Assembly: GCA_963667145.1 (NCBI GenBank)
Contig: OY762943.1
Span: 498,122-562,121 of the forward strand
Length of the DNA: 64,000 bases
Source: Candidatus Cloacimonadota bacterium
Lineage (GTDB): Bacteria > Cloacimonadota > Cloacimonadia > G963667145
Direction of reading: 5' to 3'
The first letter of the stretch is position 1; each line of letters starts with the position of its first letter. This document shows, one piece after another, positions 3,409 to 53,265 of this stretch. The notes beneath the pieces were generated by a model, which was not told where the DNA came from, made no database searches, and saw nothing but the letters and a program-made list of their open reading frames with translations. The translations under genes were made by a program, and so were the position numbers.

Positions 3409-5742
3409 TCAAAATAAACTGTAAGGGTCAACATCCACATTGAGCCTGATGCCGTACAAAGGCGTTAAATTCAGCTTCACGAATTTAACAACCCAATTGA
3501 CCTCTTTGGTGCTTATCGCTTTCACCACCACATGATACCTAAAACGCTTTTTCAGGCGAAAAACAGGAGCTGGAGTTGGTCCCAAAATCTTAATTTTACT
3601 CTCCAAAAAGTCGAACAATTTTTTGTTTTTTTGCAAAAACTTTTCCAGCTTTGCGTCGTCTATTGATGAAAAAACGAACCTTACCATCTTGGAATACGGT
3701 GGATAGTCCAACATCTTTCTGACTTCAAGTGATTTTTCGGCAAAATCCTCAAACTCGCCAGATTTCACCATCTGCAAACACAAATCTTCGGGGTTATACG
3801 TTTGCAATAGAAAAGTTCCCTCTTTTTCTCCTCTGCCCGTTCTGCCAGCAACCTGCGTCAGCAAAGCAAAATTCCTCTCACCAGCCATAAAATCTGGCAT
3901 ATTCAATAAATCGTCCGCCCGCAAAACAACAGCCAAAGTGATGTTGGGAAAATCCCAGCCTTTGGCAACAATCTGCGTTCCCAGAATGATGTCAACCTCG
4001 CCTTTTTCTATCTTCTCCATATTCGCCTTGTGCTTGGCAAAAGAGCTCGCCGTGTCACTATCTACACGCAAAATCTTGGCTTGAGAAAAAAATCTGCTCA
4101 ACATCTCCTCAATCTTCTGCGTACCTGTGCCACCTTTCATAAATCCATAATTTCCACACACAGGGCACTTCTTGGGAATTTCCCGAGTGAACCCGCAATA
4201 ATGACACCTCAAAGCATTGTCACTACTGTGATAACTGAGCGAAATGTGGCAATGTGGACACTGCACCAACTCTCCGCAATCGCGACATTGCAGATACGAG
4301 CTGTGTCCTCTGCGATTTTGCAAAATAATCGTTTGCTCTTTTCTGGACAATCTATCCAACACCAATTGCTTGAACCGCTCAGTGAACAAAGATTTTTCTT
4401 CCTTCAAATCTAAGATTTCAACAGTTGGAAAAGTTGCTTTAAATGGTCGATTATTCAGGCGAAGCAAATTGTGTTTTCCCAAAGCTGTGTTTTCCCACGA
4501 AGCAAAAGACGGAGTCGCAGAACCCAAAATCACCACAGCGTTGTTGCCCTTCGCCCTCACGAGAGCCAAATCACGAGCGTTGTAGAAAGGTGCATTATCC
4601 TGCTTAAAAGTCTGCTCATGCTCCTCGTCCACGATTATCAAGCCAAGATTTTGTACTGGTGCAAAAATAGCCGAGCGAACACCAAGAACAATTTGTGCAG
4701 TTTTCGCCCTCTTCCACTGCAAATACCTCTCGACACCTGCAAGTCCACTGTGCAAAATCGCTATTTTCTCTTTCGGGAACGCCCTGCCAACTCGCTGAAG
4801 CATCATGGGTGTTAGCGAAATCTCTGGCAACAAAAAAAGAACTGTTTTGCCAAGTCGCAAGCAATCACTCATCGCCTTGAAATAGACTTCCGTTTTCCCT
4901 GTTCCAGTTTTCCCAAATAGCAGAAATGAAGAAAATATCTCTTTTTCTATAACTTCCTTGATTTGCAAATAAGCCTCTGTTTGCTCATCAGTTAAGTCAA
5001 TTTCGGAAACTATTTTGTCCTGTGGCTCCAATATCTCGCTAAATTTGTTCCGCAACTCTCTACCAATAATTTTCTTCTCCTCAAGACCTCGAATTACAGA
5101 ATACGAAAATTTTTTGCTGATAACAGACAGAGGGATTGCATCATCACAATCTGCCAACAAATTGAAAAGCTCTCGCTGTTTAAAGCCAAGCTTTGTCGTG
5201 CCAATCTCGGAACAAATAAGCTTTATATAATTCTCTTTCCCTTTCAAAGATTCCGTAGAGTTAGTCCGCAAAATCCGCAAGAAACCACCAGTTTCCAACT
5301 CTTCCAATTTTTTAAAAAATCCAGCTTTGTTGTATTTCTTCCGCAGTTCGTCAACACTAATATCGCCACTTTCGGGCAAAATCTTCAGCAAATCGTCATC
5401 ACTCTTGTTACACAATTTCACAACTTTCTGACTCACCTCAATTCGTGCACCTCTGTCCAAAACCGCAAATAACGCCATTCCAAGCGGATAATGATAGTAC
5501 CGCGACACCCAGTCCGCCAAAGAATACAACTCCTCGTTTATTATCGGCTCATCGTCCAAAATCTCTACGATTTGCTCGCACGTAAAATCTTCAGGCTTCT
5601 GCACCTCTTCTCCAACTATCGCCGTCGTTAGCTTCCTCCGAAGTTTGACCAAAACCCTGACGAGAGGCTTCACTTCAACATCACTGCAATAAATCAGCCC
5701 GTCTTCCAAATTCTGAGCAAAATACAATTTGTAATAATTCAT
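3409..5742 (-). CDS. priA: Primosomal protein N'
   Basis: GKTGTGKTEVY, DEEHE, SATPS, Cys-rich zinc region, QVAGRTGR; ATG at 5742 overlaps the upstream gene's stop. Confidence 0.95.
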   Translation of the reverse strand: MNYYKLYFAQNLEDGLIYCSDVEVKPLVRVLVKLRRKLTTAIVGEEVQKPEDFTCEQIVEILDDEPIINEELYSLADWVSRYYHYPLGMALFAVLDRGARIEVSQKVVKLCNKSDDDLLKILPESGDISVDELRKKYNKAGFFKKLEELETGGFLRILRTNSTESLKGKENYIKLICSEIGTTKLGFKQRELFNLLADCDDAIPLSVISKKFSYSVIRGLEEKKIIGRELRNKFSEILEPQDKIVSEIDLTDEQTEAYLQIKEVIEKEIFSSFLLFGKTGTGKTEVYFKAMSDCLRLGKTVLFLLPEISLTPMMLQRVGRAFPKEKIAILHSGLAGVERYLQWKRAKTAQIVLGVRSAIFAPVQNLGLIIVDEEHEQTFKQDNAPFYNARDLALVRAKGNNAVVILGSATPSFASWENTALGKHNLLRLNNRPFKATFPTVEILDLKEEKSLFTERFKQLVLDRLSRKEQTIILQNRRGHSSYLQCRDCGELVQCPHCHISLSYHSSDNALRCHYCGFTREIPKKCPVCGNYGFMKGGTGTQKIEEMLSRFFSQAKILRVDSDTASSFAKHKANMEKIEKGEVDIILGTQIVAKGWDFPNITLAVVLRADDLLNMPDFMAGERNFALLTQVAGRTGRGEKEGTFLLQTYNPEDLCLQMVKSGEFEDFAEKSLEVRKMLDYPPYSKMVRFVFSSIDDAKLEKFLQKNKKLFDFLESKIKILGPTPAPVFRLKKRFRYHVVVKAISTKEVNWVVKFVKLNLTPLYGIRLNVDVDPYSLF

Positions 5743-7868
5743 TTGATTGTCACGTACCACCGTTTTTTGTACATCGTCTCGCCCTTAGAGATGCTCAACA
5801 CCACATTGTAAACACCAGTCTCCAAAAACTTGCCTCTGTCGTCTTTGCCATCGAATTTGATGTCGCCTTGAATTGCAGATTTCTTGTAATTTCGCAAATT
5901 CCTTTTGAGATTGCCCTGCAAATCGTACACCTTGCAGTGAACTCTGGCAATAGAACGAATCTCGGGAACATTGTAGCCTATGGTAATAGATTCTCCGCGT
6001 CTGATTACCTTCTTGGAAATATTTGTATCAAACCGGTTTTTATATTGATAAACTCTGACAGAATTTGCTTCGCCTGGCGTTGCCGTGTCCACACATTCTC
6101 CCCAAACATTGCCAAGGTCTTGGTAGCCGAATTTCTCCAGCGAAGTCCCTTTCGCCAAATTTATTTTGCCATAGCTCACGGAATCGAACTTCGTCCCCCA
6201 GCAATCTTCCAAAATCAAAACTTCGTCACTGTTGTTCAAACTCACCAACTTTTCGACCTCAATTATCTTAGAAATATCGACTTGTGGATAAAACTGCACG
6301 AACGTGCTTAAGTCGTCCGTAATTACCAAATATTCGCCTTTGTCGATTTGTAAATTAAACTTAGTAATGTCGCTTGATTTATCTCGAATTTGAGCATCGC
6401 CAACAACCAACTTCTCAGTACCTTTGTTGTAAAGTTCCAACCACTCTGGCACACCTTTTTTGGGATTGCACATCACCTCATTTATCACAATCCCAGCATC
6501 AGAGCTAACTGACGACAAAACAATGCAGTTATCACTTTCATCAGCGTCCAATTCACAAGTCAAATTCGCTCTCCAAATTTGATAAACATCAGAAGAATTT
6601 CGGTCACCAAAATCTACCTCAGCACTCTCACCTTTACCCACAAATCCAACTTTGTGTTCAAGCAAAATCGAGTCGTTGCAACTTAGTGAAATCTTAGCAA
6701 AATCTGCTTGTAAATCGAATGTGGATAAGTTGGTGATTTTGGTGTATAACTTTTGGTTCTTCCTATAAAATTCCGATAGTTTCAGCGAAACAGGAAATTT
6801 ATTTATCGCTCCAGGAGTTAAAAACTTTGTAGAAGCAAAATCCAAATTACTCCTATCAAAATCAATATCCAAATTTATTCTTGCCAATGAATTCCCTTCG
6901 GAAACATCGTCCGCAAAACTTTCGCCTACTTCCCCATTTTCATTAGTCAATCCGTTTGTGTTTGGACTGTCATACAAAAGGACATCACAATAACTTGCAT
7001 CAGGCGAAACCAACTTGACACCATCCGTGGCAGAACCTCCATTCTGAAAAGACAGCTTTTTCACAACATCAAACTCAGGATTTGCCCCAATCACAACGAA
7101 AGATTTGGCAGAAACCAAACACGAATCGAATTCGTGCAAAAGAGAATAAGAAGTCCCACCAGCATAGATTTGCCAGCCACACAGATTTATAGAACTATCC
7201 GTGGGATTATAAAACTCCATCCACTCGCTATCTCCATCAGAGCCAGGAGGGTCATAATACAATTCACTAATTTTCATTGTTTGCCATTTTTCAAAAACAG
7301 GTTTTTCTTTCACGTTCGTCTTGCCAGGAGTCGGCTCGGTACATTCCGCAAAATCAACCTCACAATCGTCACAATCTTGTCCATCAATTTTCCGAGCTAA
7401 ACTACTTCCCGAAGAAACGTCAGGAGCAAATTTATTCCCAACAGTCCCGTCTTCTATCGCCAAAGAGTTGCTGTTAGGACTGTCGTACAAAAGCACATCA
7501 CAATAACTGCCATCGGAAGAAACCAACTTCACTCCGTCCGTCGCTGAACCACCGTTTTGGAAAGAAAAATCTTTTTGCAAATCACAAAAATCAGTTGCAC
7601 CTACAACCAAAAAACTCTTCCCCTCTATTGTTACATCAGGAAATGTATAAACAAGAGTAAAACTGCTTCCTCCCGAATAAATTTGCCACGATTGCAAATT
7701 AACAGCACTATCAGCACAATTGTACAGTTCTATCCACTCCTTGCCAGAGTCAGAACCTTCGGGATCGTAGAGAATCTCATTGATTTTCACATTCCCCCAA
7801 ATGTAACCAAAGCAACAATATACACCTGCAAAACTCAATAGCATTCTCAGTCCTACTCTTCCTTTCAT
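5739..7868 (-). CDS. Secreted protein with three lamin-tail domains and a C-terminal FlgD-Ig-like domain
   Basis: INEILYDP...EWIELYN-type motif three times, TPG ends, C-terminal VYDLQG...FDGKDDRG...GVY; hydrophobic N-terminus. Confidence 0.8.
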   Translation of the reverse strand: MKGRVGLRMLLSFAGVYCCFGYIWGNVKINEILYDPEGSDSGKEWIELYNCADSAVNLQSWQIYSGGSSFTLVYTFPDVTIEGKSFLVVGATDFCDLQKDFSFQNGGSATDGVKLVSSDGSYCDVLLYDSPNSNSLAIEDGTVGNKFAPDVSSGSSLARKIDGQDCDDCEVDFAECTEPTPGKTNVKEKPVFEKWQTMKISELYYDPPGSDGDSEWMEFYNPTDSSINLCGWQIYAGGTSYSLLHEFDSCLVSAKSFVVIGANPEFDVVKKLSFQNGGSATDGVKLVSPDASYCDVLLYDSPNTNGLTNENGEVGESFADDVSEGNSLARINLDIDFDRSNLDFASTKFLTPGAINKFPVSLKLSEFYRKNQKLYTKITNLSTFDLQADFAKISLSCNDSILLEHKVGFVGKGESAEVDFGDRNSSDVYQIWRANLTCELDADESDNCIVLSSVSSDAGIVINEVMCNPKKGVPEWLELYNKGTEKLVVGDAQIRDKSSDITKFNLQIDKGEYLVITDDLSTFVQFYPQVDISKIIEVEKLVSLNNSDEVLILEDCWGTKFDSVSYGKINLAKGTSLEKFGYQDLGNVWGECVDTATPGEANSVRVYQYKNRFDTNISKKVIRRGESITIGYNVPEIRSIARVHCKVYDLQGNLKRNLRNYKKSAIQGDIKFDGKDDRGKFLETGVYNVVLSISKGETMYKKRWYVTIK

Positions 7869-7899
7869 AGCAAAAACTATTATTTTCGAAATTTTTGTG

Positions 7900-8997
7900 T
7901 CAATCCAAAACTACAGAAAAATTGGGCGGTATGCAGTAAAAGTATCCACCCTTGTTAATTTTTTCAATGTCTCTCGAATAAAAATCTGTGATGATGGGAT
8001 TTATATTCATCACCTTATAATTTGGTTTCGAGCAATTTTCTTTCAAAATCTGTTTTGGCGATTTCCCATCTCGTCCTCGATTGCCACGGAAATGATTAAA
8101 ATACAGCGTGTAGCAGTGAGTTTTGCACAGAAAATCTTCGCAACTTCCAAAATCCTCAATCCTATAAAACTCATCTTCAATCAAGCAGTGAGCACTCTCA
8201 ACATCCGAGTTATAAGTCGGACTAGCTTTCGGGATGAGCAAATGCTTCGCACCATTTTCGGCTACCATTTTTTCAAAATATGTAATGCCTTTCTTCTTAT
8301 TAACGTTCGTGAATTCCGTGCCATTGTCCGTCTGAAAAGCGACTTTGGAAATATCGACTCCACATTTTGCCAAATTTTTGCACAAATAATCGATATAAAT
8401 CCCTGTATTAACGCTCGTTTTTTCGTAACAAAATCCAATGAATTGCATCCCCGATTTATAGTCGCGAGCAGTTATTTGATACTTCGGGAAATTTTTGTAT
8501 TTAATCCCCTCAAACAACTCTGGTAAGTCGGTCAGATACTTAATATCAACCTGAAATTTCTCGTAAACTTTTGCTTTTTTCCGCATCAAACTCAGGTCTT
8601 TTCTGCGTTGGTATCGTCTTCTTTTCTTCTTAATCAAACCCTCATCACACAGCTTTTTGTGAACAGTGGAATGCGAGCAATTCAGCTGAAGATGGTCAAT
8701 AATTCGTCGTGAACCCCACAGATTATTGGATTTATTTCGGCACTCTCTAATTTCGTCAACCACTTTGGAATTTATACGATTCGGGAAATATTGATTTTTT
8801 CGGGACTTGTTATTCAACCCCTCCTCTCCCTTTAAATTATAGGACTTTACCCACTTTCGCACATTTTTCCTGGTGGTGTTGAATTCACGTGCAGCCTCAG
8901 AAATGGACGTCTCTTTGGCGTACTTCACCAACTTTTTTCAGTAATAAACCTTGTACTTTTTATCCATAAAATTCTTATTGCTTTCGTAATTATTCAT
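7900..8997 (-). pseudogene. IS481-like DDE transposase with a nonsense codon at codon 20
   Basis: CGA in copy 2 is TGA here (8938-8940); the rest of the ORF is intact with FQVDIKY / QTDNGTEF / DVES. Confidence 0.85.
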
Positions 8998-9144
8998 AGT
9001 GGTCAGATTGAGCTTTCACGAGCTGATTTGACCATTTTTTTCCACAATTTACGTGAAAGTTCTAAGCAATCTCCCCATTTTTTTATAAACTTTCCTGTTA
9101 CAAATCGTTAATTTAGGGTGGATACTTTTAGTGTGAACTTTCCA
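7923..9144 (-). mobile_element. IS481-like insertion sequence, copy 1 (1222 bp)
   Basis: TGG...CCA ends sharing subterminal TAAAAGTATCCACCC; 15-bp target duplication AAACTACAGAAAAAT at 7908-7922 and 9145-9159; homologous to 51998-53218. Confidence 0.93.
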
Positions 9145-9236
9145 AAACTACAGAAAAATCCAAACTAAATTTCCTTGACTACAATCCACAAAACACAAGT
9201 AATGGCTCATATTATAGTGTATAAGGAGACTACGAA

Positions 9237-9512
9237 ATGTATAAACATGAAATGCTCGACCAATCAGTAAAATTACTTGTAAAAAATATGGCTTTTTTAA
9301 GAGCTTTAGAAAAAAAAATTACTTCTCCCGATCCAGATTCCATCAATTTGGAAGAAACTACTCAAGCTAATCAACAACAAGCATCAAGTGGCTTAGACTT
9401 TAGCAAAAAGAAAAGTTTGCAAGATGTTCTGAATACTGCTCCCCAAGCTATCGAAAAAGCTGTTGGAGACATGCAAGCAATTTGTAAAAATATAGCTTCT
9501 TACCTATTCTAA
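9237..9512 (+). CDS. Hypothetical protein
   Basis: Strong RBS AAGGAG upstream; heads a co-directional gene run. Confidence 0.7.
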   Translation: MYKHEMLDQSVKLLVKNMAFLRALEKKITSPDPDSINLEETTQANQQQASSGLDFSKKKSLQDVLNTAPQAIEKAVGDMQAICKNIASYLF

Positions 9513-9520
9513 AAACATCA

Positions 9521-10903
9521 ATGCGTAAACTTACCCTACTATTTTGCTTGTGTTTTGGATTGCTCTTTGGAAAATCCTTAGTCGAAGTTGATATCGTAGC
9601 TTTTCAGCAATTAGCTGGCAGAACTAATACCGCCGAAAGTAGCTACGGTTTCAACGAATTGCATAGCAAAATTTCCTCCGAGTTCTCTAATTCCATCATA
9701 GTTGGATTGGGGAATAATTACTACGGTTCTTTCAGATCTTTACGAAATAAAGATAAATCTGTTGCTATCGAATTGAAGAAGCTGAACGCCGACCTATGTT
9801 TGCTATCTGGCGAGGATTTAATTTGTGGACTGAAAGATTATTTAGAGTATAATGACATTGCTGGCATCAAAACTTTAGGAGCTAATCTAAAAAGCAATAA
9901 AGAGAAAAACCTAAAAGGCATTTTTCCCTCTTTCACCATAGAAAAAAGCGGATATAAAATTTTGTTTATTGGAGGATGTTCAGAAAATCTATTCATAAAC
10001 GACGAAATATCCACTTCTTCAATATCTAAAGCGGTTGAAGCAAAAATTAGTGAAGCCGTGAGAACCAAGAATATTCCCAATGCTGTGGTCGTTCTGCTTG
10101 ATATTCCCAACAGTTTTGACGCTTTTGGCAGACAGATTACCAATGAAGCCTTAAGAAAAGTCAGCAAAATTGATGGAGTTTCAGCCATCATTATGAACGA
10201 CAATAAATCTTCGTCTTACTCTACAAAAACAAAGTCCATTCCTCTAATCAACACGAGTGTGCAAGAAGGAACAATTTCTCACGTTAAGCTCAGCTTTGAC
10301 CCTAAATTCAAATTTTTAGCTTCTGCCAGTTCAGAAATAATCACTCTTGAAAAAAATACCACATCAACTGAAACCCCCGAAATTGTTGCTACCTCAAACT
10401 CCGTTATAAGTCACAAATCTACCCGAAAAAAACCAATCTCTCCATTGGGAAAAATTGTTTGCCGAAATTTGGCTGAAAGCAGTGGAGCAGATTTTGTGGT
10501 ACTTCCTCAAAATATTTTCAAGAACTCCTTACCAAATGGAAAAGTTTTTGACAAAGATGTTTATCAAATCTTCAAAACTGACCATCGCTTGTTTACCGCA
10601 AAAGTTAGTGGAAAGAAACTTAAAGAGATTTTTGAGCTTATAATCTTCAAAAACAAACGGTATCAATATTACGCCCCTGAGTTGAAGCACAATCAAAGCG
10701 AAATTACTTCTCTTAAATGTTCGGGATTTTTTGGTCTTTCTCAGATCAAAGACTATTCCCAATACTCCGTAGTAACAACTCAAGAGGGGTTTGACGAATT
10801 TCTAACAGACGGAAATAAAAAAAATTCTCTCAACAAATCTCTAATCTCTTCTCTTTTGGAGGAATTGAGAGGAAAAATTCTTTCTGCAGATCTCCAAAAT
10901 TAA
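9521..10903 (+). CDS. Divergent 5'-nucleotidase-like secreted protein
   Basis: Signal peptide; metallophosphoesterase-like N domain (LGANL, KILFIG) and 5'-NT C domain (SPLGK, GADFVV, VSGKKLKEIFE); metal ligands not recognisable. Confidence 0.6.
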   Translation: MRKLTLLFCLCFGLLFGKSLVEVDIVAFQQLAGRTNTAESSYGFNELHSKISSEFSNSIIVGLGNNYYGSFRSLRNKDKSVAIELKKLNADLCLLSGEDLICGLKDYLEYNDIAGIKTLGANLKSNKEKNLKGIFPSFTIEKSGYKILFIGGCSENLFINDEISTSSISKAVEAKISEAVRTKNIPNAVVVLLDIPNSFDAFGRQITNEALRKVSKIDGVSAIIMNDNKSSSYSTKTKSIPLINTSVQEGTISHVKLSFDPKFKFLASASSEIITLEKNTTSTETPEIVATSNSVISHKSTRKKPISPLGKIVCRNLAESSGADFVVLPQNIFKNSLPNGKVFDKDVYQIFKTDHRLFTAKVSGKKLKEIFELIIFKNKRYQYYAPELKHNQSEITSLKCSGFFGLSQIKDYSQYSVVTTQEGFDEFLTDGNKKNSLNKSLISSLLEELRGKILSADLQN

Positions 10904-45824: not shown

Positions 45825-45942
<118 letters not shown>

Positions 45943-46111
45943 CAAAGAGCTTTTAAAACAAATCGTTATGATAAAAAAGTTGGTGAGATATTAAAAAGAA
46001 AAAAATAAGCCAATGGAACAATTAGTATCACTCGGCTGAGCGCATTACTACGCTTACACCTGTGACCTATCAACGTTGTAGTCTCCAACGGTTCTCATAG
46101 GGAAATCTATT

Positions 46112-46153
<42 letters not shown>

Positions 46154-46270
46154 TTCCAAACTTAGCTACTCGGCAATGCAGCTGACGCCACAACCGATAC
46201 ACCAGAGGTTTGTTCACACCGGTCCTCTCGTACTAGATGCAAATCCTCTCAAATTTCCTACTCCCACGAA

Positions 46271-46317
<47 letters not shown>

Positions 46318-46340
46318 ACTCTTTAATTGGCGAACAGCCA

Positions 46341-46371
<31 letters not shown>

Positions 46372-46427
46372 AGTTGAGCCGACATCGAGGTGCCAAACAC
46401 CGCCGTCGATATGAACTCTTAGGCGGT

Positions 46428-46460
<33 letters not shown>

Positions 46461-46618
46461 TTTGAGCAACGGCCCTTCCATACAGAGCCGCCGGATCACT
46501 AAGACCTGCTTTCGCATCTGCTCGACCCGTCAGTCTCGCAGTTAAGCTCCCTTATACCTTTATGCTCTTCGATTGATTGCCGACCAATCTGAGGGAACCT
46601 TTGTAAGCCTCCGTTACT

Positions 46619-46651
<33 letters not shown>

Positions 46652-46902
46652 ACCAGACAATGTCTGCTAGCAGGGTAACTGCTAGCGTTAGTGATTCAAC
46701 AACATAAGGGTGGTATTTCAAGGGTGACTCCACGCAGACTAGCGTCCACGCTTCAAAATCTCCCACCTATCCTACACATACCTCATCAAATCACAATGTC
46801 AAGCTATAGTAAAGGTTCACGGGGTCTTTCCGTCCGTTCGCGGGTAGGCGGCATCTTCACCGCCACTACAATTTCACCGAGATCCTGGTTGAGACAGTAT
46901 TC

Positions 46903-46990
<88 letters not shown>

Positions 46991-47178
46991 TGGGGCTTCA
47001 CTCAAGAGCTTGCACTCTCTCACTTAACCTTCCAGCACCGGGCAGGTGTCAGTCTATATACTTTCAATTGCTTGTTTGCATAGACCTGTGTTTTTGATAA
47101 ACAGTCGCTTGAATCTTTTCACTGCGGCCGGGGGCATGCTCATACCGCGAAGGTAATCACTTCCCCCGGCACCCCTTC

Positions 47179-47212
<34 letters not shown>

Positions 47213-47695
47213 TAACCAGAATTCTCTCGAACACCTGAGGATACTCTCCTCACCCACCTGAGTCGGTTTGGGGTACGGTCTGTTATGACATAAACGCTTA
47301 GAAGTTATTTCTTGGCAGCACTATAGGTGGACTTTGCGAGCTTAAGCTCTCGTCCTGTGTCTCAGAATATTGCTCGGCGGATTTGCCAACCGAACTTCTT
47401 ACGCACATTCAACACCACTTTCAGCCGGTGTCTCCACTGCAACGCTGCGTCACTCCATCACTTCCCATAACAGGTTCTGGAATATTAACCAGATTCCCAT
47501 CAGCTACCCTGGAAACCAGACTCGCCTTAGGGGCCGACTAACCCTGAGCAGATTTTCTTTACTCAGGAAACCTTGGGTTTTCGGTGTGCGGACTTCTCAT
47601 CCGCATTATCGCTACTCATGCTAGCATTCTCTCTTGTAGCCACTCCAGCATCTCTTACAAGACACCTTCAACGCCGACTACAATGCTCTCCTACC

Positions 47696-48009
47696 CCAAG
47701 CACCTATTTTTAACTTCAAACTTTATCAGAATTTTCTACTCTTTTCAGGAGGTATCTCCTTGAGTTTCCATTCTGTTTCAGCATTCTTTCTCTTTTTCTC
47801 GCATCACTCTCGGATAAGTAAGCTTCATAATATATAAGCTTCCATTCTCCAGCTTGAGTATATTTACTCTTGCCACTTAAATGCTCAAAAATTCTACGCT
47901 CTAAATCGTTGGTGTATCCTATATAATGCAAATTTCTATTCAAATCTTTCAATAGATATACATAGTACATAGTTACTCCTTAAATTCAAAATTAAAAATA
48001 GGTGCTTGG
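47696..48009 (-). other. 23S intervening sequence at the helix-45 position (314 bp)
   Basis: Perfect 18-bp IR CCAAGCACCTATTTTTAA/TTAAAAATAGGTGCTTGG enclosing an ORF. Confidence 0.9.
47716..47970 (-). CDS. GIY-YIG nuclease-family protein inside the 23S IVS
   Basis: YYVYLL...HYIGYTNDLERRIFEH...WKLIYYE...ARKRERMLK; RBS AAGGAG 5 nt upstream. Confidence 0.9.
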   Translation of the reverse strand: MYYVYLLKDLNRNLHYIGYTNDLERRIFEHLSGKSKYTQAGEWKLIYYEAYLSESDARKRERMLKQNGNSRRYLLKRVENSDKV

Positions 48010-48621
48010 CCGCGATTTCGGTATTATACTTATCAGTCCCGATCATCTTCGGTGCATTACCACTTAACCAGTGAGCTATTACGCACTCTTTAAATGATAG
48101 CTGCTTCTAAGCTAACATCCTGGCTGTCTTTGCAATAAAACATCCTTTCTCACTAAGTATAAATTTAGGGACCTTAATCGTCGGTTAGGGATCTTTCCCT
48201 CTCGCCCATGGAGCTTATCCCCCACAGACTGTCTCCCTTACATCAAATTACGGTATTCGGAGTTTATTAAGGTTCGGTAGGCTTGTAGGCCCCCTAGCCT
48301 AATTAGTGCTCTACCCCCGCAATTCTAATAAGAGGCACTGCCTAAACAGTTTTCGGAGAGAACCAGATATCGCCCGGTTTGATTGGCCTTTCACCCCTAC
48401 CCACAGCTCATCCACTGATTTTTCAACATCAGTTGGTTCGGTCCTCCATTTGGTTTTACCCAAACTTCAACCTGGCCATAGGTAGATCACCGGGTTTCGG
48501 GTCTAATCCTGCCAACTAAACGCGCTATTAACACTCGCTTTCGCTTCGGCTCCATCACTTTATGATTTAACCTTGCTGACAAAATTAACTCGCTAGCTCA
48601 TTATACAAAAGGCACGCCATC

Positions 48622-48691
48622 CCAAGCACATATTTAACCCCCACAAACTATAATCTCTTATAAAATCTATAAGAATTAAATATGTGCTTGG
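48622..48691 (-). other. 23S intervening/expansion segment at the helix-25 position (70 bp)
   Basis: Perfect 16-bp IR CCAAGCACATATTTAA/TTAAATATGTGCTTGG. Confidence 0.8.
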
Positions 48692-48741
48692 TCTGACTGA
48701 TTATAAACATACGGTTTCAGATACTATTTCACTCCCCTTCC

Positions 48742-48789
<48 letters not shown>

Positions 48790-49091
48790 AAAATGTATTT
48801 AGCCTTACCGGATGGTCCCGGCAGATTCAGACAGGGTTTCACGTGCCCCGCCCTACTTGGGATCCTGCTACAGCAGATACAGAATTTCGTCTACAGGAGT
48901 ATCACCCTCTTCGCTACAGCTTTCCAACTGTTTTCGACTATCCTCTATCAGTCCGATATCGCAGTCCCACAACCCCAGCTAACAAGTCAGCTGGTTTAGG
49001 CTCTTTCCCGTTCGCTCGCCACTACTTAGGAAATCATTATTATTTTCTCTTCCTGTGGTTACCTTAGATGTTTCAATTCACCACGTATGCC

Positions 49092-49161
49092 CCAAGCACC
49101 TATTTAAGCCACAACAGACTAAAATTTCTATTCAATCCGCAAGGATTAAATAGGTGCTTGG
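49092..49161 (-). other. 23S intervening/expansion segment at the helix-10 position (70 bp)
   Basis: Perfect 16-bp IR CCAAGCACCTATTTAA/TTAAATAGGTGCTTGG. Confidence 0.8.
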
Positions 49162-49448
49162 TAATTGAGTATAACCTCAATTGGGTTGCCCCATTCGGAA
49201 ATTCCCGGGTCAAAGCTTGCTTACAGCTAACCGAGACTTATCGCAGCAAACCACGTCCTTCATCGCCATTTTGCGCCAAGGCATTCACCGTATGCCCTTT
49301 CTACTTAATTTTCGATTCTCTTTAATAATCTCACCACTTCTATAAAATTTCTTTTCTTAAAGAACTATAAAATAAATTATTAGCCCCAAAATTGAGCTAC
49401 TAATTTATTCTTTATCATCAATCCAACCGTAAACCCAACATAAAAAAA

Positions 49449-49524
<76 letters not shown>

Positions 49525-49602
49525 AAGCAAATTGCAAACAATTTGCAATTAATAATTTATAATTAATAGTTGATAATTACCGACCCCGTCCCACCAAAAC
49601 AT

Positions 49603-49950
49603 CTAATTACTTTTAGAGTTTTTGATTATTGCGGTCAGGAGCTTAATTATTTCTACCAGATCACTTTTGAGACCAGCAACTTCATCCTCTGTCAAATAAA
49701 TGTCAGTAAGCAAATCCAACCAGTACTCAGTTTCTCCAGCCTCTTTGAGTGCTATTGACAATTTCGAGATAAAGTCTTTCCTACTTTGAGCATTCTGGCT
49801 TTCCTTGATGTTAGCACCAATTGACGTTCCACTTCTCAGAACCTGCTTAGAGAGCACATACTCTTTTTTGATAGCTGTTAAATACTTGTAGAGCTTAACA
49901 ATTCGTTTAGCAAACTGAAAACCCTTTTCATAGACAACATTATCTTTCAT
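49603..49950 (-). CDS. Four-helix-bundle protein (23S rRNA-IVP / TIGR02436 family)
   Basis: LSKQVLRSGTSIGANIKE...SRKDFISKLSIALKEAGETEYWL. Confidence 0.93.
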   Translation of the reverse strand: MKDNVVYEKGFQFAKRIVKLYKYLTAIKKEYVLSKQVLRSGTSIGANIKESQNAQSRKDFISKLSIALKEAGETEYWLDLLTDIYLTEDEVAGLKSDLVEIIKLLTAIIKNSKSN

Positions 49951-50012
49951 CTCTTTCCAAGTCCAACGTATCCATAATTATCAATTATTCATTGTCAATT
50001 TTCAATTACAAA

Positions 50013-50089
<77 letters not shown>

Positions 50090-50157
50090 ATCAGGATTTA
50101 ATAAAATAAATTATGTAGAGTAAACCAAAGCCAATCGGCTTAATTTTTTTCCTTTAA

Positions 50158-51724
<1,567 letters not shown>

Positions 51725-51839: not shown

Positions 51840-51974
51840 ACTTATTTTTTTTGACGCATAAAAATACTTTGCCTTCAATTTCTAATACTCAATATTGCTC
51901 AACTGAAGACCTAGCATTCAGACTCAAAAACTTCGCTCAATTGTGAATCGTAATTAAAATGGTCTGTTTTGCCG

Positions 51975-53072
51975 TCAACATAAAAGTTCATATTTTCTGG
52001 GCGGTATGCAGTAAAAGTATCCACCCTTGTTAATTTTTTCTACGTCTCTCGAATAAAAATCTGCGATGATGGGATTTATGTTCATGACCTTATAATTAGG
52101 CTTTGAAAAATTTCCTTTCAAAATCTGTTTTGGCGATTTCCCATCTCGTCCTCGGTTGCCACGGAAATGATTAAAATAAAGCGTGTAACAGTGGGTTTTG
52201 CACAGAAAATCTTCGCAACTTCCAAAATCCTCAATTCTATAAAACTCATCTTCAATCAAGCGGTGACAACTCTCGACATCTGAATTAAAAGTCGGACTAG
52301 CTTTTGGAATAAGCAAATGCTTCGCACCATTTTTGGCTACCATTTTTTCAAAATATGTAACGCCTTTCTTCTTGTTAACATGCGTAAACTCTGTGCCATT
52401 GTCCGTCTGAAAAGCAATTTTGGAAATATCGACGCCACATTTTGCCAATTTTTTGCACAAATAGTCGATATAAATCCCTGTGTTAACGCTCGTTTTTTCG
52501 TAGCAAAATCCAATGAACTGCATCCCCGATTTATAGTCGCGAGCAGTTATTTGGTATTTCGGGAAATTTTTGTATTTAATCCCCTCAAACAGCTCTGGTA
52601 AGTCGGTCAGGTACTTAATATCAACCTGAAATTTCTCGTAAATTTTCGCTTTTTTTCGCATCAAGCTCAAGTCTTTTCTGCGTTGGTATCTTCGCTTTTT
52701 TTTCTTAATCAAACCTTCGTCGCACAGCTTTTTGTGAACAGTGGAATGCGAGCAATTCAGCTGAAGATGGTCAATAATTCGTCGTGAACCCCACAGGTTT
52801 TTGGATTTATTTCGGCACGTTACAATCTCATCAACCACTTCAGGATTCATGCGATTCGGGAAAAATTGATTTTTTCGGGACTTGTTATTCAACCCCTCCT
52901 CTCCCTTTAAATTATAAGCTTTTACCCATTTTCGCACAGTTTTTCTGGTGGTGTTGAATTCACGTGCAGCCTCCGAAATAGAAGTTTCTTTGGCGTACTT
53001 TACCAACTTTTTTCGGTAATAAACCTTGTACTTTTTATCCATAAAATTCTTATTGCTTTCGTAATTATTCAT
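51975..53072 (-). CDS. IS481-like DDE transposase (intact; stop codon lies outside the element)
   Basis: HTH, FQVDIKY, QTDNGTEF, DVESCHRLIEDEFY. Confidence 0.92.
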   Translation of the reverse strand: MNNYESNKNFMDKKYKVYYRKKLVKYAKETSISEAAREFNTTRKTVRKWVKAYNLKGEEGLNNKSRKNQFFPNRMNPEVVDEIVTCRNKSKNLWGSRRIIDHLQLNCSHSTVHKKLCDEGLIKKKKRRYQRRKDLSLMRKKAKIYEKFQVDIKYLTDLPELFEGIKYKNFPKYQITARDYKSGMQFIGFCYEKTSVNTGIYIDYLCKKLAKCGVDISKIAFQTDNGTEFTHVNKKKGVTYFEKMVAKNGAKHLLIPKASPTFNSDVESCHRLIEDEFYRIEDFGSCEDFLCKTHCYTLYFNHFRGNRGRDGKSPKQILKGNFSKPNYKVMNINPIIADFYSRDVEKINKGGYFYCIPPRKYELLC

Positions 53073-53218
53073 AGTGGTCAGATTGAGCTTTCACGAGTTG
53101 ATTTGACCATTTTTTTCACAATTTACGTGAAAGTTCTAAGCAATCTCCCCATTTTTTTATAAACTTTCCTGTTACAAATCTTCAATTTAGGGTGGATACT
53201 TTTAGTGTGAACTTTCCA
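51998..53218 (-). mobile_element. IS481-like insertion sequence, copy 2 (1221 bp)
   Basis: Same TGG...CCA ends as copy 1; 15-bp duplication AAAGTTCATATTTTC at 51983-51997 and 53219-53233. Confidence 0.93.
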
Positions 53219-53265
53219 AAAGTTCATATTTTCATTTTGCGAAAATCAATCTTGCAGAACTGCTC

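Follow-up and report, generated by a model that had tools for sequence, protein, structure and literature searches.

An IS481-like element lying 19 bp upstream of TTGACA-type hexamers in Cloacimonadota genomes

Does a small insertion sequence (IS) choose its targets by the −35 boxes of its host's promoters, and does its transposase take its stop codon from them? The question is raised by a stretch of 64,000 nucleotides (nt) from a Candidatus Cloacimonadota bacterium (GenBank assembly GCA_963667145.1, contig OY762943.1, positions 498,122 to 562,121; hereafter the window). An earlier note on this DNA had described two copies of an IS481-like element in it, each followed at the same distance by a TTGAC-type hexamer and each with a transposase frame that ends inside that hexamer. 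To our knowledge, very few bacterial transposons choose their sites by a host landmark. From the copies in this genome, in relatives and in wider scans, we consider it very probable that the element belongs to an active or recently active IS481-like family, with TG...CA tips and a 15-bp duplication, that picks its targets by the TTGACA hexamer. As TTGACA is the sigma-70 −35 box in the hosts, the IS would be parking just upstream of promoters.

The element and the hexamer beside it

Both window copies are on the minus strand, and re-checking the sequence at 7923–9144 and 51998–53218 bore out the coordinates, strands and differing 15-bp duplications of the earlier note, as well as its central observation that, on the transposase strand, a TTGACA or TTGACG lies beyond each right end, separated from it by 19 bp. 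The parts of the two copies are these:

7923–9144, minus strand: IS copy 1, IS481-like, 1222 bp; transposase frame broken by TGA at codon 20 (8938–8940)
7923–7951, minus strand: copy 1 right inverted repeat (IRR, transposase 3′ end), encoding the C-terminus ...KGGYFYCIPP
9116–9144, minus strand: copy 1 left inverted repeat (IRL), TGGAAAGTTCACACTAAAAGTATCCACCC on the transposase strand
7908–7922, unstranded: copy 1 target-site duplication, promoter-proximal, AAACTACAGAAAAAT on the plus strand
9145–9159, unstranded: copy 1 target-site duplication, distal, AAACTACAGAAAAAT
7898–7903, minus strand: TTGACA, host −35-type hexamer, 19 bp from the copy 1 IRR tip; its TGA (7900–7902) is the read-through stop
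51998–53218, minus strand: IS copy 2, 1221 bp, with an intact 365-residue transposase frame at 51975–53072
51983–51997, unstranded: copy 2 target-site duplication, promoter-proximal, AAAGTTCATATTTTC on the plus strand
53219–53233, unstranded: copy 2 target-site duplication, distal, AAAGTTCATATTTTC
51973–51978, minus strand: TTGACG, −35-type hexamer, 19 bp from the copy 2 IRR tip and about 250 nt upstream of the 16S ribosomal RNA (rRNA) gene

The two copies are 92.7% identical to each other. Their inverted repeats are imperfect and about 29 bp long, with an inner core, AAAAGTATCCACCC, common to both ends and with tips TGG...CCA; the GGATAC core of the IRR lies 19 nt from the tip, and the outer 15 nt of the left and right ends differ. 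Codon 20, on which the earlier note is silent, is TGA in copy 1 (8938–8940) and CGA in copy 2, and because of this nonsense codon copy 1 is probably dead.

The whole genome (G000, a single contig of 1.54 Mb with 39.6% G+C) holds eight full copies and one fragment. At +20 to +25 from the right tip, the eight copies read TTGACG, TTGACA, TTTAAA, TTGACT, TTGACA, TTTACA, TTCTTC and TTGACA. TTGAC is found at exactly +20 to +24 in five of them, for which the genome rate of 0.00114 per position and strand gives P(at least 5 of 8) = 1.1e-13. Exact 15-bp duplications flank six of the eight.

In G003, a genome of the same genus, an IS of equal length, 72% identical in protein and in DNA, is present in about 45 copies. 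Of these, 38 are full; an exact 15-bp duplication flanks 26 of the 38, and TTGAC occurs at exactly +20 in 21 and at +19 in one, every other offset having one at most. Five of the 38 show the mirror geometry (GTCAA-N4-duplication beside the IRL), and one more does so off by one base. In every such case the element lies upstream of the hexamer, in one orientation or the other, and the orientation in which the transposase reads towards the hexamer prevails by about 4 to 1; of the uniform orientation seen in the two window copies, the strong bias holds, but the mirror insertions mean that it is no rule. Because the median pairwise identity of the G003 copies is 99.3%, the burst is, to judge by the copies themselves, recent, and the pattern is one of where the element inserts, beyond mere survival.

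Two further observations bear on the target site. Five G003 loci are tandem, with an IS, 14–15 bp and a second IS. At one of them (L037) an identical 15-mer occurs three times and is followed by gagc-TTGACG, as predicted for a second hit on one hexamer. The determinant must here lie on the hexamer side, because after the first insertion the other side is IS DNA. In addition, the sister genome G002, which has no IS copy, preserves the empty site of copy 1 as TGTCAA-TTTA-AAATTGTAGAAAAAT, present once and followed by the right flank. Its single 15-mer has three differences, in a surrounding region that is 75% identical overall, and the hexamer is thus host DNA that pre-dates the insertion and has been conserved.

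The same geometry extends to more distant relatives. At 43–47% identity (genomes G007, G008, G010, G014, G016 and G032), TTGAC is at +19 or +20 in eight of nine copies, whose right ends read ...GGATACTTTTTACCTTTACCACCCA; these six hosts belong to the same class, and their names place them in Cloacimonadota. Kin copies are not fully independent, although their flanks differ. Wider scans, which covered species-representative genomes as well as metagenome contigs, added 147 loci, of which 100 were scorable, 44 being without a recognisable core and three with too little flank. TTGAC at +18 to +22 was found in 9/19 loci with a CA-ended IRR against 1/57 with a CT-ended one (Fisher P = 5.6e-6), and in 1/24 with other ends. 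The CT-ended loci come mostly from Acidobacteriota and Planctomycetota, and the positives include contigs labelled Marinimicrobia and Dojkabacteria as well as several unlabelled metagenome contigs at 36–46% identity. A quick maximum-likelihood tree of 78 clusters groups the CT rows in one supported clade of 51 rows, 50 of them without the hexamer, and scatters the hexamer-positive rows among the remaining 27. The hexamer trait may be ancestral to the whole non-CT assemblage, and a single negative locus says little, because well-sampled elements match the hexamer in only about 60% of their copies.

Taken together, 46 copies in two genomes, the relatives, the wider scans, the tandem repeat hits and the empty site support what the earlier note had proposed from two copies, namely that insertion is aimed at a fixed distance 5′ of −35 boxes. 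It had also asked whether further copies would have TTGAC at that offset or tails of variable length, and the answer favours its proposal (5/8 copies here and 21/38 in G003 with TTGAC, and tails of at most seven residues in 26/26).

Several copies show features of their own. Three of those in this genome lie inside 14 kb (G000:C1, about 1507800–1521300), and two of the three, at 1516459 (+) and 1521212 (−), have no matching duplications; the upstream 15-mer of one is the downstream 15-mer of the other, which suggests an inversion through recombination between them. This region also contains a flank of about 60 bp twice, one occurrence being uninterrupted, and copy 1521212 is degraded, with stops and a frame break. 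At G000:C1 460657–460900 there is a scrambled short remnant of the IS in three pieces with 82–87% identity. Another copy (G000:C1, about 1267888–1269108) sits inside a clustered regularly interspaced short palindromic repeat (CRISPR), GTTTCAATTCTACAGTAGTCTAATTTAAAT, with spacers of about 36 nt, and splits the array; its 15-bp duplication lies inside the repeat, with TTTAAA at the usual position of TTGACA. The TTGACT of one target in this genome lies just beyond the 3′ end of a convergent open reading frame (ORF). In G003, one IS (L031, G003:C1:1305270–1308830) has gone into another copy of itself close to the start codon, with inner positions 141–154 duplicated and TAGACA at +20, which means that the element can target a near-consensus hexamer within itself. 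The G008 element (L004, G008:C1:422467–426303; 45% identical) has its transposase split into about 280 + 84 residues in 3/3 copies, one of which has an 85-bp tandem duplication of the right end, and a matching 15-bp duplication is found in 0/3. We also considered a mimicry of the inverted-repeat core by the hexamer, as the IRL has TTCACA at 8–13 (by eye), and rejected it, this word not being kept in the G003 IS.

Contigs from four runs of one study, none of them recorded as RNA, were compared with window positions 7300–9800. They showed only the junctions between IS and flank, together with loose ends whose sequence fits other copies; none of these contigs spans an empty copy 1 site. One loose-end consensus resembles an extra site with TTGACT at +20 (agreement 0.68) and was excluded from the counts.

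Promoter hexamers and how they may be found

If the hexamer is the landmark, are the hexamers that are chosen promoters? Across 533 gene-upstream regions of this genome, TTGACA has the top sense-over-antisense excess of all hexamers (146 vs 76), outranking even the Shine-Dalgarno word AAGGAG, and it peaks 50–70 nt before start codons. By this measure, TTGACA is the host −35 consensus. With gene calls that are crude (longest ORFs in any frame, at least 90 residues), 861 (76%) of the 1128 genomic TTGACA fall in rough coding calls, and 167 (14.8%) are intergenic, co-oriented and at most 250 nt from a start. Among the 16 duplication-verified TTGAC sites of G003, 15 are intergenic with a co-oriented ORF starting 47–165 nt downstream of the tip (binomial 5e-12), and the other is spanned by ORFs. 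ORFs span 1/16 of the G003 sites with TTGAC at +20 vs 5/9 of those without it (Fisher 0.012).

The flanks point the same way. Pooling 27 targeted sites and comparing them with promoter-like and coding classes of TTGACA, we find the following:

T at +27: 63% of targeted sites, 63% of the promoter-like class, 31% of the coding class
All-A/T tract at −8 to −5: 59% of targeted sites, 59% of the promoter-like class, 11% of the coding class
A+T content of the 15-mer: 0.75 in targeted sites, 0.74 in the promoter-like class, 0.59 in the coding class

Position 6 of the hexamer is A in 23/27 targeted sites vs 55% of upstream TTGACN. The T at +27 is the sole downstream signal at the targets. Position, orientation, conservation and flank features are thus what support 'promoter' status for these hexamers.

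The two window hexamers face transcription units, as the earlier note had said:

5739–7868, minus strand: host ORF 3′ of the copy 1 hexamer, 709 residues, with lamin-tail-type repeats (the label of the earlier note)
45825–51724, minus strand: rRNA operon downstream of copy 2 (16S, two tRNAs, 23S, 5S), with 16S at 50159–51724

Only 35 nt separate the listed ATG of the 709-residue ORF (7868) from the initial T of the −35 hexamer, which puts this ATG close to the expected start of transcription; a second ATG, 24 nt downstream and after a Shine-Dalgarno-like AAGGAAGAG, seems the likelier start. Copy 1 lies within a divergent promoter region, where a second −35-like hexamer, TTGACT (9175–9180, plus strand), faces a plus-strand gene at 9237; in the empty site of G002, the hexamers of this divergent region are 34 bp apart.

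Several results weigh against reading these sites as promoters recognised by the element. Specificity is strong but not absolute, with TTGAC in neither orientation at roughly one in four to one in three copies (3/8 here and, by our reading, 8/35 sites in G003). No TATAAT-like −10 box is visible at a spacer of 16–18 bp in the 27 targeted sites, and TAnnnT occurs in 3/27, about the background; the −10 is weak at the targets and at the promoter-like TTGACA of the genome generally, in keeping with the caveat that the earlier note had attached to its two sites. The internal control is weak, since with mirror sites counted as targeted the ORF-spanned fractions become 3/20 vs 3/5 (0.07). The excess of promoter-type over coding TTGACA could stem from selection and not from recognition, and the T at +27 appears too distant from the tip for a reader of the hexamer, which would better fit promoter recognition or selection than a reading of bare DNA. 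In the wider scans, tips were set by rule (19 nt past a GGATAC-type core) and not by duplications, and the 15-mer recurs upstream in only 6/23 loci (exact in two, with 2–3 mismatches in four, of which at least one is doubtful); the other loci may have 16–17 bp repeats, rearranged flanks or misplaced ends.

We propose that the hexamer is sensed at a fixed distance from one tip of the element. A DNA-binding domain of the transposase, placed 19 bp outside the tip, would read the hexamer and the A/T tract just upstream of it, and staggered cuts 15 bp apart would fall at −19/−20 and −5/−4 relative to the hexamer. Counted from the initial T of the hexamer, the duplicated 15 bp would then be −19 to −5, and the element would end 19 bp upstream. 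The −35 box, spacer, −10 region and gene would all be kept whole and only DNA beyond about −55 displaced, making this a low-cost site, and selection would then clear most insertions at intragenic TTGACA. The difference between the outer 15 nt of the two ends could explain the orientation bias; an asymmetry of the ends is likewise argued to set orientation in Mutator-like elements, in the part of PMC3942029 available to us.

How would the hexamer be recognised? For direct reading by the transpososome, the chances seem to us about even. It is favoured by the exactness of the spacing (21 sites at +20 vs one at +19), by an A at position 6 that is stricter than in natural promoters, and by the lack of any −10 requirement. 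It is also favoured by targets that are not promoters, such as the CRISPR repeat, the 3′ end of the convergent ORF, the ORF-spanned G003 site and the TAGACA inside an IS.

A possible but less probable alternative is tethering, in which the transposase docks on region 4 of sigma-70, or on another part of the RNA polymerase holoenzyme, at the −35 box. Host-factor tethering is common in the superfamily of integrase-like folds to which this transposase belongs. It would account for the near-absence of hexamers outside the promoter class among those chosen (15/16 in that class) and for flanks that match those of promoter hexamers, including the T at +27 outside any plausible transposase footprint, and the A favoured at position 6, which is the consensus base, might be a sign that sigma occupies such hexamers more strongly. 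Insertions in DNA unlikely to be promoter and the lack of a −10 signal are harder to reconcile with docking, and so is the occurrence of the clade in several phyla with the same hexamer and offset, which a protein that reads DNA would achieve more easily than one that needs a specific partner, even if region 4 of sigma is conserved as well. A complex prediction of the transposase with residues 462–549 of the RpoD of this genome gave no verdict, with a score of 0.00 and without controls, and we count it neither for nor against binding. Tethering has been proposed for Mutator-like elements of the same habit; the spacing given for TnGBS-type elements is 13–17 bp, looser than the 21 at +20 and one at +19 seen here (both from the part of PMC3942029 that we saw).

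It is rather unlikely, in our view, that TTGACA is merely a preferred word and that the promoter contexts are what purifying selection leaves in gene-dense genomes of 1.5 Mb. With 76% of genomic TTGACA being coding, most insertions at this word would be lost from a 90%-coding genome; some of the copies that are kept do lie at non-promoter hexamers, and the stringency for the hexamer exceeds that of natural promoters. Yet the recent burst in G003 retains gene-disrupting insertions without TTGAC (5/9 vs 1/16), which means that selection has not purged all such events, and the A/T tract, at 59% of targets vs 11% of coding TTGACA, shows that the targets have more than the hexamer in common with promoters. 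Since the hexamer is in any case the host −35 consensus, the outcome under a bare word preference would still be parking upstream of promoters. That TTGAC is a coincidence of two AT-rich flanks, or part of the element, was conceivable while the earlier note had n = 2, but it is now refuted and may be practically disregarded, given the P of 1e-13 that this genome yields by itself, the independent recurrence of the pattern in other genomes, the 19 nt between tip and hexamer that differ at every site, and the hexamer in the empty site of G002.

The stop codon within the hexamer

The transposase frame has no stop within the element, and the final 25 nt of the right end encode the conserved ...KGGYFYCIPP, which means that the GGATAC core, a putative transposase-binding site, doubles as coding sequence. 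As the earlier note had described, both window copies stay open through the IRR and add seven target-encoded residues, NFSVVLD in copy 1 and RKYELLC in copy 2, before ending on the TGA inside the hexamer. The 26 copies with TTGAC at +20 (five here and 21 in G003) all have tails of at most seven residues; 20 of them run for exactly seven and close on the hexamer TGA, and the other six meet a stop within the duplication first. Where TTGAC is absent from +20 (20 copies), the tail is anything from 2 to more than 23 residues long.

The stop is therefore real as a description, and we think that it is best read as a by-product of geometry and of a frame that, throughout the family, tends to extend to the last bases of the element. 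With no internal stop and a fixed offset, the TGA falls in frame and the tail is capped at seven. The suggestion that the target site guarantees termination stands in so far as the in-frame stop exists, but there is no sign of selection for it in these copies, and at an offset of 19 bp the phase would be right by chance in one case out of three.

An adaptive borrowing of the stop, in which the element has lost its own because the target supplies one and the seven-residue tail matters for function or regulation, is improbable. Relatives at 37–47% identity still have a frame that stays open across the IRR and a TGA in phase with it (L086, for example, ends ...KSA on the TGA of TTGACA), and tails are capped at seven in all 26 copies with TTGAC at +20, as such borrowing would have it. 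A phase obtained by that one-in-three chance would, however, simply be inherited afterwards, and it could not drift freely, because the last 25 nt are constrained both as coding sequence and as transposase-binding site. The tail sequences are also unrelated to one another, the catalytic parts are intact in the copies lacking the hexamer, whose tails range from 2 to more than 23 residues, and the tail is unstructured in the structure model (predicted local distance difference test, pLDDT, below 50 for residues 351–365). The CT-ended sister clade (L088–L128 and others, mostly Acidobacteriota), in which 56/57 loci have no TTGAC at +20, offers a last comparison; its elements end ...CCCCT, and in 14/21 of the loci listed the tip together with the two bases beyond it forms a TAA or TAG, another way of closing the frame at this point.

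Significance and known systems

Within the literature searched, parking upstream of promoters had previously been reported only for Mutator-like elements. That an unrelated transposase arrives at the same solution with single-base precision gives the DNA just upstream of promoters the look of a refuge open to mobile elements quite generally. The system is compact, with one 365-residue protein and two 29-bp ends, and could be used to ask by what means a transpososome gauges a distance of 19 bp from a word of 6 bp, and whether a sigma factor or the polymerase participates. Two uses are practical. Copies of the IS point out −35 boxes in uncultured phyla, Cloacimonadota among them, whose promoters have otherwise not been mapped, and an enzyme that integrates DNA a known number of bases away from any sigma-70 promoter might be turned into a tool. 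More tentatively, the clade might be a phylum-spanning group of integrase-fold transposases with a dedicated way of finding promoters, through docking on sigma or RNA polymerase or through a sigma-like reading of TTGACA, that is base-exact at 19 bp, independent of TnGBS/ISLre2, and a bacterial counterpart of retroviral and Ty tethering.

Where does the element belong? Pfam finds HTH_28, HTH_32 and rve_3 in the transposase, and the best NCBIfam model is IS481 (NF033577), aligned over positions 2–282 of 284 with 145.8 bits, below the cut-off of 224 and hence short of membership. The nearest annotated plasmid genes, named 'IS481 family transposase', are about 27% identical. D151, D224 and E267 are invariant in the transposase alignment and give a DDE core after helix-turn-helix domains, as IS481 requires; an invariant D157, which may or may not correspond to an ISTde1 signature of IS1202, lies between the first two. 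Seven residues after E267 there is an invariant E274, neither the K/R of IS481 nor the Q of IS1202. An AlphaFold model of the transposase (pLDDT 85) has its best PDB matches in IS21 IstA and in retroviral integrases and intasomes, and a sequence search of solved structures gave the helix-turn-helix domain of the Tc3 transposase as its sole match (E = 0.0014). Mutator and IS256-type families are absent from the family and structure matches of the transposase. The element is 1221–1222 bp with one ORF and a 15-bp duplication, and its tips are TG...CA as in IS481, with G and not T as the third base. On these signatures we class it as IS481-like and leave its family unassigned. Of the family label in the earlier note, then, the IS481-like part is sound, but the ISTde1/IS1202 signatures that can be checked differ.

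The published families are taken here as the excerpts available to us describe them. IS481 elements are about 1–1.3 kb, with one ORF, TGT...ACA tips and duplications of 2–15 bp; a minority of members make repeats of about 15 bp, and the IS481 and IS1202 families are related (PMC10045372, in part). By the rule given for IS481, the residue seven positions beyond the catalytic E is K or R; for IS1202-family transposases a Q is reported there, and the ISTde1 subgroup is reported to have repeats of 15–17 bp and TGT ends (excerpt of bioRxiv 10.1101/2022.12.17.520857). The present element resembles IS481 in its single DDE transposase with an N-terminal helix-turn-helix, its size of about 1.0–1.3 kb and its TG...CA tips, and differs in having TGG tips and an E at E+7. 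Its 15-bp duplications (6/8 here, 26/38 in G003) fit the 15–17 range of ISTde1, but it is unlike ISTde1 and IS1202 in the same two respects, with TGG for TGT and E for Q. In the full text of the literature searched, with supplementary tables and ISfinder notes outside its scope, no −35 targeting is reported for IS481, IS1202 or IS3-type elements.

The closest precedent within these related families is the ISAba32 subgroup of IS1202, for which fixed-distance, oriented insertion at XerCD sites is described (PMC10132070 and bioRxiv 10.1101/2022.12.17.520857, both in part). It is like the present element in keeping a fixed distance from a short binding site of a host protein and in being oriented with respect to that site. 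In ISAba32, which is the only IS1202 subgroup that the preprint reports as target-specific, the IRL abuts the xrs/dif site, whereas here it is mostly the IRR that adjoins the promoter hexamer.

A second likeness is to tethered retroelement integrases, which have the same catalytic fold and integrate beside regions where transcription starts. Ty3 integrates with TFIIIB, lentiviral integrase with LEDGF, and murine leukaemia virus (MLV) integrase with BET proteins. The element differs from them in a base-exact spacing that points at least equally to DNA reading, and the host partner would here be hypothetical. The part of PMC3942029 that we saw cites Ty3 as an analogy for promoter-targeting Mutator-like elements.

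It is with those elements that the habit is most fully shared. TnGBS, ISLre2 and ISKra4, which have Mutator-like transposases, insert 13–17 bp upstream of sigma-A promoters with the right end on the promoter side (PMC3942029, in part). TnGBS/ISLre2 promoters were found with models of both −35 and −10, whereas only the hexamer and the upstream A/T tract are visible here, and the distance is exactly 19 bp here against 13–17 bp there. No integrative and conjugative element (ICE) forms were seen among our copies, unlike TnGBS-type elements. The transposases are unrelated (Mutator-like p-MULT there, an integrase fold here), and the behaviour alone is shared, that is, a short fixed distance 5′ of the −35 box, the right repeat on the promoter side, both orientations in some, and a site proposed to be of low cost. 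Relative to the Mutator-like cases, what is new, as far as the sequence and the literature searched can tell, is a convergent, base-exact targeting of promoter-upstream DNA by a clade of integrase-fold transposases across several phyla.

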